DNA of 64,000 nucleotides from an uncultured Candidatus Saccharibacteria bacterium. GTDB taxonomy: Bacteria > Patescibacteriota > Doudnabacteria > UBA920. The position numbers and the translations under genes are program-made. The stretch is taken from positions 230 to 64,229 of the forward strand of contig CAYJQY010000005.1 in the NCBI GenBank assembly GCA_964372905.1. The letters run 5' to 3'. The notes below the pieces were generated by a model, which saw only the letters and a list, made by a program, of their open reading frames with translations, searched no databases and was not told the DNA's origin. Shown piece after piece: positions 11,594-34,830 of this stretch (position 1 is the first letter of the stretch; each line of letters opens with the position of its first letter).

Positions 11594-11698
11594 ACTTTTT
11601 GGTGTTTATTTGGTTGATTTTATTTGAGTTTCAGCCGTGTTTCGGAAGTGCTATTAAGATAGCACAAGCCCTTAAATGGTGCAAGGGGCTAGGGTCAA

Positions 11699-11786
11699 CC
11701 AGAAAAATGTTAGGTCTTGGAGCCAGCCGCAGGAGCCAGCCGCAAGGCGCGACGAGGACGGTGACAAGATCCTAGCATTTTTCTGG
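11699..11786. repeat. long hairpin element: 16-bp inverted repeat (15 of 16 matching) enclosing a 56-nt GC-rich loop with a 13-bp direct duplication
   Basis: ccagaaaaatgttagg … cctagcatttttctgg; the interior holds ggagccagccgca twice in tandem (11719-11744). It starts 3 nt after the stop of the TraG-like gene. Confidence 0.6.
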
Positions 11787-11788
11787 TT

Positions 11789-14341
11789 CTACAACCCCCG
11801 CTCAATAGCCGGCTCCCCCGCGGCCATCATATCGGCCACCTGGCTTGCCTCCAAAATCTCCCCCTCAACTTCGGCCCGCGGGCGACCGTGTTTCAAACGA
11901 GAAAGCTGGCGGATGGCCTGGGCCACTTCCTGCTGCTGCGGCGTGGGCTTAGGAAGCGGATAGGTGGCCATGTTGAACGGCTTGGATGCTGTGCCGTTGA
12001 TCATCAATTTAATAAAGGCGTTAAACCGGTCAACATTAACCAAATCAAACTCGCTGAAAGTCGGCGAAAATTCCTTGGCCATGATTTCCGAATCTTCCAC
12101 GCCGATGCGGAACGCCACCATGGTACCGGCGTTGCCGAACACGGCGTCGCGCAAATCCTTGCTCGCCGCCCCCTGCGCCCCGGCCTGCTGCTCCAATTGT
12201 CCTAAATACTGGTGCGCCACTATCAATCCTAAACGGTACTTGCGGGCTTCGCTCAAAATGGCAGCGAACGCATCGGTGATGAAATTTTGGAACTCATCAA
12301 CATAGAGATAAAAATTCTGGCGCTGGGATTCGGGAATATCGGCTCGCGACAAGGCGGCCATCTGTAATTTACTGACGATGATTAAACCCAAAAGTTTCGC
12401 ATTAATCTCCCCGACTTTTCCCTTGGCCAAATTAACCAACAGGATTTTTTTCTGATCCATAACATCGCGGAAATTAAAAGCGCTCTTGGACTGCCCCACG
12501 ATGTTGCGCATCATGGAATTTTCCACGAACCGCCCGACTTTGGAAATAAGGTAGCCAAGCATTTCGCTCTTATGAAAGTCGGACGTTTTGGCCATTTCTT
12601 TTTCCCAAAACGCCCGGACTATCGGGTCTTTTAGCTTGGCCGTTTTATATTTCTGAAATTGCGTGTCAGTAAAAATGCGGGGAATTTCGACGAGCGAGCC
12701 CGGGTGCTCTTCATCAGCCATTAACGTCAGCATGGCATTGCGCATATTGTGCTCAAACATCGGACCAAGCATGGCCGGGTCAGTCACCAATTTATAAAAG
12801 ATGGAGATCATCTCCTGAATGGCAAAATCTTTTTCTTCTTCGCTGCGCACCTCAAGCATATTCAGCCCCATGGGCCGCTCAAGATCAAACGGTTCAAACA
12901 AAATTACGTCTTCCGCACGCTCTTTGGGAACATGCGGCAAAACATCTTCGATGAAGTCGCCGTGCGGGTCAATAATACACAAGCCCTCTCCATTTTTGAT
13001 ATCCTGCACTGACATATATTTCATGATTTCGGTTTTGCCGCTGCCGGTGCGGCCGATTATGTACATATGGCGCATGCGGTCCTCGCTGTCAATGTGCACC
13101 CGGGTTTCCTGGCCGCGATAAATGTTGCGGCCGAGCAGGATGCCCTCCTTGGGCATGTTGAGAGGCGGCGGCGCTTTTTTGGAAAGCAGCCACTTGATGT
13201 TGGGCGTTTCTATAAAGGGCGTGGGCAGATGCCATAAGCTGGCCAGCTCTTCGGTATTGAGCAGCATTTTTTTCAGCGGATATGAACGGTAAATGCGGAA
13301 AATAAAATCTTTGATAATGTCGCTTTGGTCGCGGTGCCGCTCGACAAAACCGTTGAAAGGCGGCATATTGTACTGCAAAAACGAAGATAGGATATTGTTG
13401 AGATGGAGGCGCGCGTTACCTGGTTTAGCGGATGATGTAACCACACGAATGTTGGTTTTATAACCAGGCCGACTAGCTTTTTCCTCAAGCTTTTTAACAA
13501 TCTCCTGCTGCATCGGCGTCAGGTGAATGGGGCTGCTGTAGCCGGTTAAGTCGTTGCGATTGGGCTGGTTTTGCTGCTGACCGCGGCCAAAAAAATTACT
13601 GCCAAAGCCGCTGAACAAGCTGACTAAAGCTTTGATGAAAATATTCCGTTCCACCATGGTGGGGTTTTTCCCCTGCTGGACTTCCAGGGCCATGTGCCGC
13701 GGCTTGGACTGCCAGCCGGCTTCAGCCGGACTGACTATGAACTGGATGGCCGCGCCCTCGTTCTCGTCAAGCTTGGACATGGCATTGGTCAGCGAATTCA
13801 GTGGATCCGACTCCATGCTTTTGTAAGTTCTAATGGGATAATAATATTTTTTTGCGGGCTTAAGTTCGGCAGCCAGCACTTCGCCGCCTTTTTGGAACGG
13901 ATTGTAACCGCGCACTTCTTCAATAAAGGCGTGGGGATACTGGGCCGAGACCTGCTTCTCCACCAGTTCGCGCAAGTGTTTGGGGCAGTTGATATAAAAG
14001 GAAATTTTTTTATCGACGCAGGCAATTTCAAAACTCACAAACTCGCTTGGCTTAAAAAAATGGACGCCGCCGATATGTGACACGGTCGTGAACAGCTGTT
14101 CAGCCACGGCGATCAAATTCTTCTTTTCCTCCTCGCCCTTGTTTTTCATCTCTTCTTTTTTGTCGGAATTTTCCTTGGGCATCTGAATTTCCAGGAAAAC
14201 CCAGTTGAGGGCACGGGGGACGATGATTTTGCTGTGATACCAGTGGCGCCGGCCATAATAAAACAGCACGACCAAAAAGGTCGCAACCAAGGCCGCCAAT
14301 ACCAGGATGGTAATTTGTATCGTACTCAACTCCAATGACAT
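11789..14341 (-). CDS. TraG/TraD/VirD4-superfamily P-loop ATPase, type IV secretion coupling-protein-like, with ~400-aa N-terminal region
   Basis: N-terminal TM helix; Walker A IIGRTGSGKT; Walker B LYVDEFQNF; downstream ARKYRLGLIVAHQYLGQL, as in the VirD4/VirB4 RK…Q motif. 850 aa. Confidence 0.5.
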   Translation of the reverse strand: MSLELSTIQITILVLAALVATFLVVLFYYGRRHWYHSKIIVPRALNWVFLEIQMPKENSDKKEEMKNKGEEEKKNLIAVAEQLFTTVSHIGGVHFFKPSEFVSFEIACVDKKISFYINCPKHLRELVEKQVSAQYPHAFIEEVRGYNPFQKGGEVLAAELKPAKKYYYPIRTYKSMESDPLNSLTNAMSKLDENEGAAIQFIVSPAEAGWQSKPRHMALEVQQGKNPTMVERNIFIKALVSLFSGFGSNFFGRGQQQNQPNRNDLTGYSSPIHLTPMQQEIVKKLEEKASRPGYKTNIRVVTSSAKPGNARLHLNNILSSFLQYNMPPFNGFVERHRDQSDIIKDFIFRIYRSYPLKKMLLNTEELASLWHLPTPFIETPNIKWLLSKKAPPPLNMPKEGILLGRNIYRGQETRVHIDSEDRMRHMYIIGRTGSGKTEIMKYMSVQDIKNGEGLCIIDPHGDFIEDVLPHVPKERAEDVILFEPFDLERPMGLNMLEVRSEEEKDFAIQEMISIFYKLVTDPAMLGPMFEHNMRNAMLTLMADEEHPGSLVEIPRIFTDTQFQKYKTAKLKDPIVRAFWEKEMAKTSDFHKSEMLGYLISKVGRFVENSMMRNIVGQSKSAFNFRDVMDQKKILLVNLAKGKVGEINAKLLGLIIVSKLQMAALSRADIPESQRQNFYLYVDEFQNFITDAFAAILSEARKYRLGLIVAHQYLGQLEQQAGAQGAASKDLRDAVFGNAGTMVAFRIGVEDSEIMAKEFSPTFSEFDLVNVDRFNAFIKLMINGTASKPFNMATYPLPKPTPQQQEVAQAIRQLSRLKHGRPRAEVEGEILEASQVADMMAAGEPAIERGL

Positions 14342-14379
14342 TTGGTTTTGGTTTTTGCTGTTTTTGGGATTGCTAGAAA

Positions 14380-14769
14380 CTAGTTGTCAGATTCTTCTGG
14401 AATGGCCATTGCGTTCATATCTGCAGGATGACGCTCACTCAAACCACTCTGATTGAGCAATCTTGTTAATTGCTCTTTCAGTGCTTCATCTGCTGCTATA
14501 GGCCTAGTTGCCAAACTTTCTTTAATTCTTTTCTCTGCTTGTGTTGCGGCAACCTTAATACTCTCAAGATCAACGGCTGGTGCTATGTCTATATTGGGCT
14601 TACTTTTTAAATCTTTTGGCGCGCCCGCTGCAACTTCTGAACGTTTAGGCCATTCCTCTGAATATTTACCTTCACGCGATTGATTAGTGCTTAAATTATC
14701 AACAAGGGCTTCCGAATTATGCGGCAAAGCTGATTCAACCTTATTAGCATTTGGATCAAGTGCTGGCAT
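14380..14769 (-). CDS. hypothetical acidic protein (~129 aa)
   Basis: Start placed at MPALDPNANK (ATG 14769) because a TGgTATAAT promoter lies inside the longer ORF-track N-terminus. Low GC. Confidence 0.45.
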   Translation of the reverse strand: MPALDPNANKVESALPHNSEALVDNLSTNQSREGKYSEEWPKRSEVAAGAPKDLKSKPNIDIAPAVDLESIKVAATQAEKRIKESLATRPIAADEALKEQLTRLLNQSGLSERHPADMNAMAIPEESDN

Positions 14770-14794
14770 ATAGCTTATAGTTAAACTTAAATAA

Positions 14795-14822
14795 ATTATA
14801 CCATATCTGGATTTATTTGTAA
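14795..14822 (-). promoter_or_regulatory. putative promoter (TTACAA-16-TGgTATAAT)
   Basis: Minus-strand reading cattttacaaataaatccagatatggtataattta; the -10 lies 25 nt upstream of ATG 14769. Confidence 0.4.
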
Positions 14823-14989
14823 AATGGCACAGCGGTTTTATCAACATAAAATCTTTATGAACAAAATCTCCAATTTCGATAAAATCCGCGTCTTTACCCC
14901 GTTGATACTACTGTGGTAAAATGCCAATATAATTTCATTATTTAGGTGCCTAACCCTTGAGCAACTTTGCTCGGGGCATGGCCGAAAAA

Positions 14990-16607: not shown

Positions 16608-17039
16608 TTATTTGACGCTGCCGCCGGCTTTTTCAATGGCAGCCTTAGCTGATGCGGAAACCGGCACCCGAACTTCGAGACGCTTAGTAATGGAACCGCC
16701 GAGAATTTTCACCCGAGCCAGTTCGGAAATTAGCCCCTTGGCTTTAAGACTCGCTACGGTTACGGTATCACCATCATTGAAAACTTGCAATTTATCCAGG
16801 GCGATGACCACGGCCTTGGCGTTTAAAGCGCGAAAGCCGCGCGACTTCGGCAGCTGCCGAATGAGCGGCTGGCGGCCGCCTTCAAAACCCGCCGGCATTT
16901 TGGAATGGCCGGTGCGCGCGGTCTGGCCCTTGCCGCCGCGGGTGGAATAAGTGCCGTGGCCGCTGCCCAAACCGCGTCCCACCACTTTGCGGCGGCGCGT
17001 CGATTTAGGATGCTTTTTGAGTTGATGGAGTTTGATCAT
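16608..17039 (-). CDS. rplO: 50S ribosomal protein L15
   Basis: MIKLHQLKKHPKSTRRRKVVGRGLGSGHGTYSTRGGKGQ… The ORF-track start (17102) would run into the inverted-repeat element, so the start was set at ATG 17039. Confidence 0.85.
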   Translation of the reverse strand: MIKLHQLKKHPKSTRRRKVVGRGLGSGHGTYSTRGGKGQTARTGHSKMPAGFEGGRQPLIRQLPKSRGFRALNAKAVVIALDKLQVFNDGDTVTVASLKAKGLISELARVKILGGSITKRLEVRVPVSASAKAAIEKAGGSVK

Positions 17040-17056
17040 ATATTTAACAGGCAGTT

Positions 17057-17199
17057 GGCTCGGAAAGATTGCTACTGAAGAGCCTCCGCAGGCCGATTGC
17101 ATTGCATGGTTCGCTACAGCGAAGCGGAAGCGAAATCGGCCGAGGACGAAGCGAGGCGCTGGCCGAGCGAGCGGTCTGAAGAAGCAATCTTTCCGAGGC
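17057..17199. repeat. GC-rich palindromic intergenic element with 15-bp perfect (22 of 25 extended) inverted-repeat flanks, between rpsE and rplO where rpmD normally lies
   Basis: ctcggaaagattgct (17059-17073) pairs with agcaatctttccgag (17183-17197). The interior contains the GC-rich segment gacgaagcgaggcgctggccgagcgagcgg. Confidence 0.6.
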
Positions 17200-17211
17200 T
17201 TATCAATTTAA

Positions 17212-17718
17212 TTATTTCCTCATCTGCTCGATCTGTTCTTTGGTCTTCATTCTCTTAAACGCCTGGAACACGGCCGTAACGTTGTTGACCTTATTGGAGC
17301 TGCCGACCATTTTGCTGATGATATTTTTCACGCCGGCCAAATCCATGACGCTGCGCACGGCGCCTCCGGCGATGACCCCGGTGCCGGCGCGCGCGGGCAT
17401 CAAAATGAGCCGGCTGGACTTGTATTTTATCTTAACCTCGTGCGGAATGGTGCTGTCGGCCAAAGGCACGACAATCATATTTTTCTTGGCCTGGTTCACG
17501 GCCTTGTTCACGCTTTCGGCTACGTCCGTGCCTTTCTTTAATCCCATGCCGACCTTACCTTTATGGTCGCCAATAACCACCAGCGCGCGGAAGCGCATGC
17601 GCTTGCCGCCCGCCACCACCCGGGTCACGCGCTTAATTTCCACCACTTTCTGGTCAAACTCGCGCTTCTCACCTCCGGCGCCGCGGTCACGATGCGATTT
17701 TCTTGGTCTTCGATCCAT
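17212..17718 (-). CDS. rpsE: 30S ribosomal protein S5
   Basis: …VVAGGKRMRFRALVVIGDHKGKVGMG… S5 signature. Confidence 0.9.
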   Translation of the reverse strand: MDRRPRKSHRDRGAGGEKREFDQKVVEIKRVTRVVAGGKRMRFRALVVIGDHKGKVGMGLKKGTDVAESVNKAVNQAKKNMIVVPLADSTIPHEVKIKYKSSRLILMPARAGTGVIAGGAVRSVMDLAGVKNIISKMVGSSNKVNNVTAVFQAFKRMKTKEQIEQMRK

Positions 17719-20279: not shown

Positions 20280-20298
20280 AAATGAAAAAATTCATTGA

Positions 20299-20415
20299 TA
20301 AGATGGAAACATATGCATTAAGAAAACTATTGGAGCGTCAGTTTTCAAGCTTTGGCGAGGCCAAAGCACAAGACACCTGCGACCTAGTTTTTTCAATGCA
20401 TATGTTTCCATCTTA
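20299..20415. repeat. structured intergenic element, copy 1 (19-bp perfect flanking inverted repeats plus conserved core) between rplN and rplX
   Basis: agatggaaacatatgcatt (20301-20319) pairs with aatgcatatgtttccatct (20395-20413). The core holds aagaaaactattggag … gttttca … [gctttggc-gag-gccaaagc] … gcgacctagtttt, shared with the copy at 26391-26505. Confidence 0.65.
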
Positions 20416-20420
20416 ATAAT

Positions 20421-23490: not shown

Positions 23491-23617
23491 GAGGTTAATT
23501 AACTATATGATTGCTGTGCTGCCGAAGCCGGATTTGCCAGCTGATAGCATTTGCTCCATATCTTTACATAGGGCAACAGCTATCAGCGGCAATCGGCGAG
23601 GCATCAAATCATCATAA

Positions 23618-26390: not shown

Positions 26391-26505
26391 CATCATCCCA
26401 TCCCTTGTCTAAAGAAAACTATTGGAGTGTAAGTTTTCAGCGTTTTGGCTTTGCCAAAGCGCTGAAAACCAGCGACCTAGTTTTCGTGGCAAGGGATGGG
26501 ATGAT
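26391..26505. repeat. structured intergenic element, copy 2 (17-bp flanking inverted repeats of unrelated sequence, same conserved core) between rpsJ and rplC
   Basis: catcatcccatcccttg (26391-26407) pairs with caagggatgggatgat (26490-26505). The core holds aagaaaactattggag … gttttca … [ttttggc-ttt-gccaaa] … gcgacctagtttt. It ends 14 nt upstream of the rplC ATG. Confidence 0.65.
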
Positions 26506-27221: not shown

Positions 27222-27223
27222 TT

Positions 27224-27251
27224 AAAGGGACTCTTGGCCAAGAGTCCCTTT
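27224..27251. terminator. perfect 28-bp palindrome (14+14, no loop) 5 nt after the tuf stop; possible partial terminator or protein-binding site
   Basis: aaagggactcttgg|ccaagagtcccttt; both strands are followed by a U-rich tail. Confidence 0.45.
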
Positions 27252-27256
27252 ATGAT

Positions 27257-33240: not shown

Positions 33241-33383
33241 GGTCGGCGAGCGATTGCCGTTCGCACACGCGTAGCCTCGTCCAGCGACTCGGCTCGCTCC
33301 CGCTCGGCGGTTCGTCCCGACTTCGTCGGGAACCGTGCCGAACCGCCTGCGCGAGGGTGCTCACAGGCAATCGCTCGCCGACC
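33241..33383. repeat. GC-rich palindromic element with 18-bp perfect inverted-repeat flanks in the rpsL leader; its interior is related to the 17057-17199 element in opposite orientation
   Basis: ggtcggcgagcgattgcc (33241-33258) pairs with ggcaatcgctcgccgacc (33366-33383). The interior shares gacgaag…ccgagcg(g)gagcg word order with the rplO/rpsE element. Confidence 0.6.
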
Positions 33384-33398
33384 GCAGAATCATCCAAC

Positions 33399-33425
33399 AA
33401 AAAAACCCAAAGCAAAAGGGTTTTT
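33399..33425 (-). terminator. intrinsic terminator for the upstream minus-strand transcript
   Basis: Reverse strand reads aaaaaccc-ttttgcttt-gggttttt followed by tt. Confidence 0.5.
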
Positions 33426-33672
33426 GCTTTCTCGCCTGCCTGGTACTGCCCAGAAGCCTTGTGGGCACACTTCCCAAAACCTGCGGCCTGTATGGTAATT
33501 ATCTCGACGAATCGAAATGGCTTCGTATGGATTTTGCTTTAGTATATCACAAATGCCGACGCTGTCAACCGCTGTCAAACGCCAGCGTTCCGCCGGAAGG
33601 TATCGTGTCTCGATTGGAAACTACCGAGGCTGGTGGGGCGCAAAAGGTCTTTAAAAATCCAGGACACTCAAA

Positions 33673-34169: not shown

Positions 34170-34409
34170 ATGGCTCAAAATAGAGGTAAAAAAACTGAAG
34201 TTGTTAGCGTATCCATGCCCATGCAATTGCGCGAGGATATAATTAAATACGCCGATAAGCGGGAAACCTCAGTCAGCCAAGTGGTCAACGATGCAGTAAA
34301 AAGTTATCTGCTGCTCGAACAGTGGGAAGAGGTTCGGCGAGTGTTCGTGCCGGCCGCGTTGCGCTTGGGCATCAAATCTGAAGAAGATGTGGAAACATTC
34401 TTCAAATAA
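34170..34409 (+). CDS. vapB: ribbon-helix-helix (CopG/VapB-like) antitoxin
   Basis: VSVSMPMQLREDIIKYADKRETSVSQVVNDAVKSYL RHH fold pattern; 79 aa. It lies directly upstream of a PIN-domain gene. Confidence 0.6.
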   Translation: MAQNRGKKTEVVSVSMPMQLREDIIKYADKRETSVSQVVNDAVKSYLLLEQWEEVRRVFVPAALRLGIKSEEDVETFFK

Positions 34410-34410
34410 C

Positions 34411-34830
34411 ATGAAGCTGGTCTTCGATACCAACATTTATATAGCGGCCGCAGTTCAAGGCGGTTTTTGCAATTATCTCGTAAAGTTGGTGCTTGCGCGG
34501 AACAGTCAGTATACACTCTGCATTTCTGAACCGATCATGAACGAATTGCGCAGTAAGCTGGAAATATTTCTGGCAAAAGGATTGGTTACTGAAACGAACC
34601 GGCTGCTATTGCTGAATACGATTTATCCGGCGGCCCATATCGTCGCCCCTAAAGAAAAAATCCAGGTTATAGCACGGGATCCTGATGATAACAAAATTTT
34701 AGAATGCGCGACGGCGGCCCAAGCCGACCTGATCGTCACTATGGACAAAGATTTGCTCAAACTGAAACGCTTCCGATCAATCGGCATTATCCATCCTAAA
34801 ACATTTGGCTACATGCTTCCGAAAGGCTAG
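34411..34830 (+). CDS. vapC: PIN-domain ribonuclease toxin (VapC-like)
   Basis: MKLVFDTNIYI…DPDDNKILECA…ADLIVTMDKDL carries the PIN acidic residues. The ATG lies 1 nt after the vapB stop. Confidence 0.65.
   Translation: MKLVFDTNIYIAAAVQGGFCNYLVKLVLARNSQYTLCISEPIMNELRSKLEIFLAKGLVTETNRLLLLNTIYPAAHIVAPKEKIQVIARDPDDNKILECATAAQADLIVTMDKDLLKLKRFRSIGIIHPKTFGYMLPKG

Follow-up and report, generated by a model that had tools for sequence, protein, structure and literature searches.

We have analysed a 64,000-nucleotide stretch of DNA, referred to below as the window, from an uncultured bacterium of the candidate phyla radiation (CPR) that is labelled Candidatus Saccharibacteria and placed by GTDB among the Doudnabacteria (assembly GCA_964372905.1, contig CAYJQY010000005.1, positions 230 to 64,229 of the forward strand). 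In its spc operon, the spacer between rpsE (ribosomal protein S5) and rplO (L15) contains a hairpin, which we designate element A. Our observations make it probable that A is a small non-coding palindromic repeat, comparable to MITEs (miniature inverted-repeat transposable elements) and to repetitive extragenic palindromic (REP) sequences. The observations that carry this reading come mainly from related genomes, in which hairpins of the same kind have been copied between junctions of ribosomal-protein genes, and from the resemblance of A to a second element of the window, B, in the leader of rpsL.

Structure of element A

The str, S10 and spc ribosomal-protein clusters all lie on the minus strand of the window; coordinates of the features discussed are collected in Table 1. 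Element A is a 139-nt hairpin (17059-17197) with 15-bp perfect inverted-repeat arms, ctcggaaagattgct at 17059-17073 and agcaatctttccgag at 17183-17197. An earlier note, made from the DNA letters of the window without database searches, had described this hairpin, and we confirmed both the 172-nt spacer and the perfect arms; the limits it gave, 17057-17199, were right to within 2 nt, whereas the extended inverted repeat matches at 21 of 25 positions and not, as had been counted, at 22. The predicted stem consists of the 15 perfect pairs and an interrupted extension to ~22-25 bp. The base of the hairpin is GCCUCGG/CCGAGCC, the 3' flank is CCAACUGCC, and the sense RNA of the spacer has a predicted fold of -58.4 kcal/mol (z = -3.0). 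Perfect inverted repeats of this size are far above chance in the window: five with arms of at least 15 bp and loops of up to 150 nt were found (17059, 20299, 26392, 27223 and 33241), against 0.005 per window expected from block shuffles.

The 172-nt spacer is base-for-base the same in two independent Logan assemblies (L001 and L002; loci compared are cited by such numbers) and is therefore not an assembly artefact. The rpsE of L001, identical to that of the window, carries the Pfam domains Ribosomal_S5 and S5_C. On the other side of the spacer, all homologues agree on an ATG at 17039 as the true start of rplO. The longest open reading frame (ORF) begins 63 nt upstream, at 17102, and is an artefact that enters the hairpin; gene callers favouring the longest ORF would mis-annotate the start accordingly and extend the gene into the element. 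Prediction on the transcribed (minus) strand from 16900 to 17400 gave neither a promoter nor a terminator in the spacer. A was also rejected as an intrinsic terminator, having no U run and no terminator-like site on that strand in the same interval.

A probable diverged copy of the element in the rpsL leader

Element B, whose predicted fold is -100.1 kcal/mol (z = -7.6), resembles A in its interior. Local alignment of A (plus strand) with B (minus strand) gave a score of 34, which none of 1000 dinucleotide shuffles reached (18.0±3.0); alignment in the same orientation, A(+) with B(+), gave a score of 17, which is not significant. When the interior of A was aligned with 387 real window segments of at least 60% GC, the mean score was 17.3 (sd 2.8) and the maximum 28. 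The earlier note had proposed that the two interiors are related in opposite orientation, and had named failure against shuffled controls as what would refute this; in that comparison the A-B score exceeded every shuffle, and it likewise exceeded the GC-rich segments, so that the proposal stands. The similarity is colinear along the interiors. Global alignment of the inner hairpins (17091-17141 and 33306-33347) gave z = 4.9, with 0 of 2000 shuffles reaching the score, and alignment of the 3' remainders gave z = 3.7, with 12 of 2000 reaching it; the inner-hairpin stems differ by a change on both sides, from C-G to G-C. The pattern GACGAAG-N8-30-CCGAGCG, which was picked after inspection of the data, matches the window only at 17145-17169 (+) and 33301-33327 (-), where 0 matches were expected, and its core was not found in 166 other loci. 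The flanking stems had been called unrelated, which was an overstatement: both contain TCGG and end in GATTGC/GCAATC beside the interior. By these alignments, A and B are probably diverged copies, ~65-70% identical, of one ~140-nt unit in opposite orientations. In a search for target-site duplications no direct repeat was found at the outer flanks of A or B; a 7-nt TCTTCAG repeat just inside the arms of A was considered as such a duplication and discarded, being mostly explained by the extended inverted repeat.

The evidence for the relation of A and B is good but not overwhelming, because both interiors are CG-repeat-like. Their low complexity (CGAAGCG and CGAGCG repeats, which leave the register of the alignment ambiguous) would also suit an origin of A as a locally made palindrome, for example by template switching in replication with later growth by slippage, its likeness to B then being a convergence of GC-rich, CG-repeat-like hairpins. 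In the same direction, the arms of hairpins in related genomes are tandem heptamers that clearly expand and contract, and a four-way alignment of the GC-rich interiors of A, B, a further element of the window (E11697) and the corresponding element of a close relative (L163, described below) was poor and unconvincing, so that a single family of these four was rejected. We nevertheless think a purely local origin improbable, since the A-B score lies above both the 1000 shuffles and the 387 real segments, since the similarity runs colinearly through both the inner hairpin and the 3' remainder, and since the related genomes show unambiguous copying from junction to junction.

The S5/L15 site in related genomes

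The closest genomes in the species-level collection were those of Candidatus Doudnabacteria, some of them third-party annotation (TPA) records labelled Saccharibacteria, with L15 proteins 60-73% identical to that of the window. Our clade set, drawn from genomes, metagenomes and exact-protein look-ups, comprised 26 distinct loci with L15 at least 59% identical. The S5/L15 spacer measured -4 to 27 nt in 8 of these loci and 67-188 nt in the other 18; for 15 of the 18 long spacers the predicted fold is much more stable than in shuffles (z < -3), and the long-spacer sequences are, with few exceptions, unrelated to each other and to A. In an 88% relative (L163) the 139-nt spacer contains a hairpin that can be aligned with A in its left flank and outer stem, the aligned sequence reading GCC-TC-GGAAAG-ATTGCT in A and GCCGTCGGGAAAGAATTTTG in L163, and within the stem each indel and substitution between the two is mirrored on the opposite arm. 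From this alignment the L163 hairpin is judged to be orthologous to A. Its interior, which is shorter (~55 nt), could not be significantly aligned with that of A, also after removal of A's inner hairpin. A swap of UC/UC versus GA/GA between the two suggests that the interior may invert. In an 84% relative (L167) the whole S5/L15 spacer is CATAATGACCGCAATTTT, 18 nt. None of A, B and four further elements of the window (E20294, E26392, E11697 and E23491) had a match in any other genome compared.

Hairpin spacers throughout the S10-spc region

Using 20 cluster proteins of the window as probes, we surveyed each S10-spc junction in the 26 clade loci. Spacers were either short (up to 30 nt) or contained a 60-210-nt hairpin, and the same bimodality was seen at all junctions. 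Spacers of at least 55 nt were present in 10 of 15 loci at S14/S8, 11 of 18 at S8/L6, 13 of 21 at L6/L18, 11 of 23 at L18/S5, 18 of 26 at S5/L15 and 16 of 24 at L15/SecY; junctions upstream were alike, where covered. Genomes differed greatly in occupancy. In two loci (L086 and L094) all 16-17 junctions contain a hairpin spacer, and in a 76% relative (L169, a 699-kb contig) nearly all do, whereas L167, L095 and L170 (a 418-kb contig) have almost none. The geometry is regular, the medians being 26 bp for the hairpin, 5 nt for the distance from the stop codon to its start and 11 nt for that from its end to the ATG. Structured long spacers were found in 8 of 18 clade loci at S8/L6, against 0 of 84 unrelated bacteria in the collected set; the corresponding figures were 8 of 21 against 5 of 90 at L6/L18, and 7 of 23 against 6 of 98 at L18/S5.

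These frequencies bear directly on the L30 question. A has the same position as rpmD, the L30 gene, in other bacteria, and its 172-nt spacer is close to the ~180 nt of an L30 gene; the earlier note had accordingly suggested that the hairpin might mark a deletion scar, and had regarded its position as unusual. That the spacer lacks rpmD was borne out, in that six-frame translation of 17030-17225 gave no Pfam family at E<=10, and tblastn with three genuine L30 proteins (from L048, L076 and L081, collected loci of unrelated bacteria in which they lie between S5 and L15) gave no match near the spacer, weak matches elsewhere in the window having E>=0.4. The same searches leave no coding remnant from which a scar or degraded rpmD could be recognised. 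When the syntenic comparison proposed in the note was run, the S5/L15 hairpin proved to be about as frequent as those of neighbouring junctions, and hairpins of the same kind occupy junctions that never held a gene. Relatives that likewise lack rpmD include loci with the -4 to 27-nt spacers, among them the 84% relative, which has neither rpmD nor the element. L30 is often absent in CPR bacteria (bioRxiv 10.1101/2022.01.07.475337); a loss so general to the CPR is ancient, and is therefore far older than the fast-turning-over hairpin elements. Since hairpins occur at all junctions alike, the rpmD slot is one landing site among ~20, and the scar idea has nothing left to explain. We consider a remnant of rpmD extremely improbable; the link of A to the L30 slot is a coincidence.

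Copying and possible growth of the hairpins

Within single genomes of the clade, hairpins at different junctions are often nearly the same. The L18/S5 hairpin of L010 is 97.7% identical to that at S8/L6 over 86 nt, and that of L011 is 97% identical to the one at S14/S8 over 75 nt; in L090 the L6/L18 and S5/L15 copies are 98% identical over 63 nt, and in L091 those at L14/L24 and L24/L5 are 96% identical over 79 nt. Junction copies of L003 are 94% identical, and L086 and L094 contain many near-identical pairs. Such near-identity within a genome indicates recent spread; the copies of distant genomes are unrelated. In the relatives the repeated unit takes up nearly all of the spacer: it begins directly behind the stop codon and reaches to within 0-10 nt of the ATG.

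Many arms consist of tandem heptamers (CTAGAAS, CTACCAG, TGTCAAA, GCACTAA), and the opposite arm then carries their complements. Arrays seen in L010, L011, L086, L091 and L169 include GCACTAA x4, CTAGAAS x4, CTACCAG x4 and CCCTAAT/CCCTATA x8; often one arm is a perfect heptamer array and the other degenerate, a pattern that suggests growth of the hairpin arms by slippage. GTAG and CTAC are the most over-represented tetramers of the clade's hairpin spacers (z ~9), although only in a few genomes (L086, L091, L004 and L010).

Spread of a repeat or recruitment of an RNA element

Among the possibilities raised in the earlier note, a mobile or structured element family is the one that agrees best with the copying seen across the clade, the mechanism being our own proposal. 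Several observations weigh against it. No transposase or autonomous parent element was found, the ten unassigned ORFs of the window that were screened having no transposase domains; one of the ten encodes a PIN-domain protein. In the relatives the left flank of the unit is usually TAA or TTAA and cannot be separated from the stop codon, so that no target-site duplication can be defined. A and B are only ~65-70% alike and are the only two copies visible in 64 kb, and to speak of a repeat family for A is to rely on moderate statistics. The ends of an insertion sequence of IS630 type in L169 are unlike the hairpin repeats. That element (13428-14842) is situated 2 kb downstream of secY and has DDE_3 and helix-turn-helix (HTH) genes and terminal repeats of 30 nt.

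Further points on the same side concern where the hairpins lie and how they are oriented. Structured spacers were found at 6 of 27 translation-cluster junctions and at 1 of 51 junctions elsewhere in the window (Fisher p = 0.006), and all five perfect inverted repeats fall in the translation cluster. In L091, ~10 hairpins are spread over the 6.4-kb cluster, and no copy of the family occurs in the next 10 kb. Related within-genome pairs have the same orientation in 27 of 31 cases (p = 3e-5), and the four exceptions all involve one flipped element. A functional RNA element, too, would be expected to show both the orientation bias and the cluster enrichment, and selection on an RNA stem could account equally well for the mirrored changes in the arms of A and L163. 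One may thus suppose that the hairpins are functional intercistronic elements that punctuate the ribosomal-protein polycistron, as RNase III sites, 3'-end stabilisers or translational-coupling devices, and that their spread is the recruitment of a useful module. The consistent placement between stop codon and ATG, the stems of ~26 bp, a length compatible with RNase III, and the occupation of every junction in some genomes all agree with this.

Other observations speak for spread as such. Occupancy ranges from ~0 to 100% among related genomes, and the 84% relative does without a hairpin at S5/L15. The near-identical copies within genomes point to recent spread and not to ancient conserved sites. 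A and B are oppositely oriented. Strict confinement to the ribosomal cluster had to be rejected, as L169 has copies after secY and after a gene for a type IV secretion system (T4SS)-like ATPase, and E11697 lies outside the cluster in the window. Also, stability is systematically lower on the sense side: of 107 distinct hairpin spacers (loci L003-L167), 73 have the more stable fold on the antisense strand and 32 on the sense strand (Wilcoxon p = 1.6e-4). The share of G-U among the pairs was 6.7% in the sense and 9.0% in the antisense folds, and mismatches in the sense strand were preferentially A-C and not G-U; in the 17 S5/L15 hairpins alone the asymmetry of G-U and A-C was not significant. 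It should be noted that all this bias speaks against is selection for stability of the sense hairpin. On balance we regard a primary function in the RNA as possible but unlikely, and continue to favour a selfish palindromic repeat that spreads.

The spread of such a repeat may occur by copy-and-paste and depend on the hairpin, which would explain how the symmetry of the arms is kept while their sequence changes. If the process were also strand-specific or local, the common orientation and the clustering in the operon would be accounted for. Insertions may be tolerated in so tightly coupled an operon where the hairpin holds the stop and start codons close together, contains no terminator and leaves the initiation region free. 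Element A would be co-transcribed with the spc operon, and its stem of ~22-25 bp should form in the mRNA. The stem could then be a target for RNase III or a barrier to 3' exonucleases; such effects on the mRNA are likely, as far as the predicted fold goes, but would be secondary, a plausible side effect and not the reason for the element's existence. A combined scheme is also conceivable, although rather doubtful, in which fixed-orientation hairpin modules punctuate the ribosomal-protein polycistron, having spread by strand-specific local copying without a recognisable transposase and having been co-opted for processing or stabilising the cistrons or for keeping them translationally coupled despite the insertions.

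Comparison with known elements

A search of the window, of A and B, and of 14 relatives' loci against Rfam 15, at gathering and at permissive thresholds, gave no family for the hairpins. At the gathering threshold the window matched only LOOT and two tRNAs, and the best permissive matches on A and B were snoRNA and miRNA models at chance level. In integron attC sites, RYYYAAC and GTTRRRY boxes pair at the base of the hairpin. A was rejected as such a site; the base of its stem is CUCGG/CCGAG, not RYYYAAC/GTTRRRY, and its neighbours are universal ribosomal-protein genes and not cassettes. In structure A agrees with MITEs, that is, with terminal inverted repeats on a short non-coding unit, having 15-bp perfect arms on 139 nt. 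As regards copy number, A has one probable diverged copy (B) in 64 kb, and the relatives have near-identical multi-copy families.

The Correia elements of Neisseria (CREE/NEMIS) are likewise palindromic, non-coding repeats, of ~100-155 bp, with terminal inverted repeats, that lie between genes and are co-transcribed with their neighbours. The hairpin of their terminal repeats is cut by RNase III and changes mRNA stability. Unlike them, our elements have no sequence similarity to the Correia family, no TA duplication was identified here, and the copy number in this genome looks low; moreover, the elements of the clade form genome-specific families, often with tandem-heptamer arms and with a strong orientation bias. 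The intervening sequences of bacterial 23S rRNA are sporadically occurring, extended stem-loops of ~90-150 nt whose insertion sites in a highly expressed transcript are fixed; those of different taxa have no sequence relation, and they are removed by RNase III. They differ in sitting within rRNA helices and not between protein genes, and there is no sign of excision here.

REP units are palindromes of 20-40 bp that carry an unpaired tag, GTAG or CGTC, on one side; they are extragenic, mostly between co-directional genes and downstream of coding regions, often transcribed, species-specific, and able to fold into larger hairpins (PMC3733652). The enrichment of GTAG and CTAC in a few genomes of the clade recalls REP and the related REPIN and BIME elements, which are mobilised by REP-associated tyrosine transposases (RAYTs). 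A itself was rejected as a REP or REPIN, having no terminal GTAG or CGTC tag (GTAG occurs twice, only inside A); its arms are not themselves palindromes, and we saw no RAYT gene. Among organelle genomes, yeast mitochondrial GC clusters, sponge RHEs and fungal palindromic microsatellites are small GC-rich or repeat-armed palindromes that invade the spacers of compact, gene-dense genomes, and share with our elements presence/absence polymorphism and the lack of a transposase of their own (PMC2800124, PMC4478555, PMC7218506). The host type is different, there is no sequence relation, and the elements described here lie inside a bacterial polycistronic operon. In behaviour, and by analogy, the Correia elements appear closest, with REP/REPIN, the organellar hairpin repeats and the 23S rRNA intervening sequences also near. 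Since the features of REP sequences, attC sites and terminators are lacking in A and Rfam has no family for it, we file A as a small palindromic repeat and not as a member of a named family.

Other elements and features of the window

Further hairpins of the window provide a hint as to how such elements may be built. E20294 and E26392 have in common an interior of ~75 nt (GAAAACTAGGTCGC...CTCCAATAGTTTTCTT), >80% identical and in the same orientation (z = 25), each within a perfect outer stem of its own (20 and 16 bp, respectively), the two stems being unrelated. One interior inside different outer stems means that an interior can be newer than the stem enclosing it, and the arrangement suggests nested insertion into existing hairpins, or exchange between hairpins. 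At rplN/rplX the 84% relative has a simpler hairpin, whose outer stem is similar by eye only (GGAAGATATTTGCC vs GGAAACATATGCAT). E11697 and the element of L163 gave a pairwise z of ~5; a common CGTCCTC heptamer, tried as a family mark, was not significant after the possible motifs had been counted. Directly after tuf and before rpsJ there is a 15-bp perfect loopless palindrome (27223-27252, TAAAGGGACTCTTGG/CCAAGAGTCCCTTTA), which may be a terminator or a further element.

Upstream of B and rpsL lies a near-consensus promoter of sigma-70 type (33568-33541 on the minus strand; TTGACA, 16 nt, TG, TATACT). It is followed by ~140 nt without an Rfam match and then by a terminator-like hairpin with a U run (33390-33430); the segment 33390-33568 (-) has the appearance of a small RNA that has escaped recognition, or of a str-operon leader that acts by attenuation. 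At 34387-34830 (+), ~1 kb from B and on the strand opposite to nearly all genes, a PIN-domain protein is encoded (PF13470, E = 1.5e-17), which may be the toxin of a toxin-antitoxin pair. Just downstream of secY, and on the opposite strand, is a full-length LOOT RNA (Rfam RF03000; 14947-15068 (+), 86.9 bits against a gathering threshold of 46.4). It is a multi-stem RNA with no relation to the hairpin repeats, and the 84% relative has it too (L167, 12152-12280 (-)). In L169, a 194-aa ORF without a Pfam match lies between rplB and rpsS (2402-2986).

Table 1. Positions in the window of element A, its neighbouring genes and the other hairpin elements
Feature	Position	Strand	Description
E11697, outside the ribosomal cluster	11697-11788	-	18-nt AT-rich outer stem, GC-rich interior; fold z = -4.5
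rplO (ribosomal protein L15)	16608-17039	-	143-aa product, PF00828, 100% equal to P0001; downstream gene
rpsE-rplO intercistronic spacer	17040-17211	-	172 nt, without rpmD
Outer stem of A, 3' arm in transcript	17059-17073	-	AGCAAUCUUUCCGAG, 15-bp perfect
Interior of A	17074-17182	-	109 nt, 62% GC; related, inverted, to interior of B
Inner hairpin of A	17091-17141	-	51 nt, 8-bp perfect stem GGCCGATT/AATCGGCC; aligns with inner hairpin of B, 33306-33347
Core motif GACGAAG...CCGAGCG	17145-17169	+	Common to B
Outer stem of A, 5' arm in transcript	17183-17197	-	CUCGGAAAGAUUGCU, 15-bp perfect
rpsE (ribosomal protein S5)	17212-17718	-	168-aa ORF; upstream of the spacer in the direction of transcription
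E20294, rplN-rplX spacer	20294-20420	-	Family 1 interior, own outer stem
E23491, rplB-rpsS spacer	23491-23617	-	Structured hairpin, fold z = -7.8
E26392, rpsJ-rplC spacer	26392-26505	-	Family 1 interior, different outer stem
Element B, rpsL leader	33241-33383	-	Perfect 18-bp arms at 33241-33258 and 33366-33383; interior in the opposite orientation to that of A

Significance

As regards the L30 slot, our finding is deflationary, and the part worth following is the colonisation of the operon across the clade. Palindromic repeats that evolve fast have colonised, in Doudnabacteria-like genomes, the very operon that is the cell's most conserved and most highly expressed, a pattern for which we found no earlier description in the literature searched. 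For the use of ribosomal-protein marker sets, it follows that the spacers are not conserved in this clade. The observations also bear on how much insertion a translationally coupled operon tolerates, and, for organisms beyond the reach of culture, the hairpin spacers offer a natural system in which RNA processing can be put to the test. If the modules do punctuate the polycistron, they would be a bacterial counterpart of the punctuation of organellar transcripts, and element A would be one module in a partly colonised genome.

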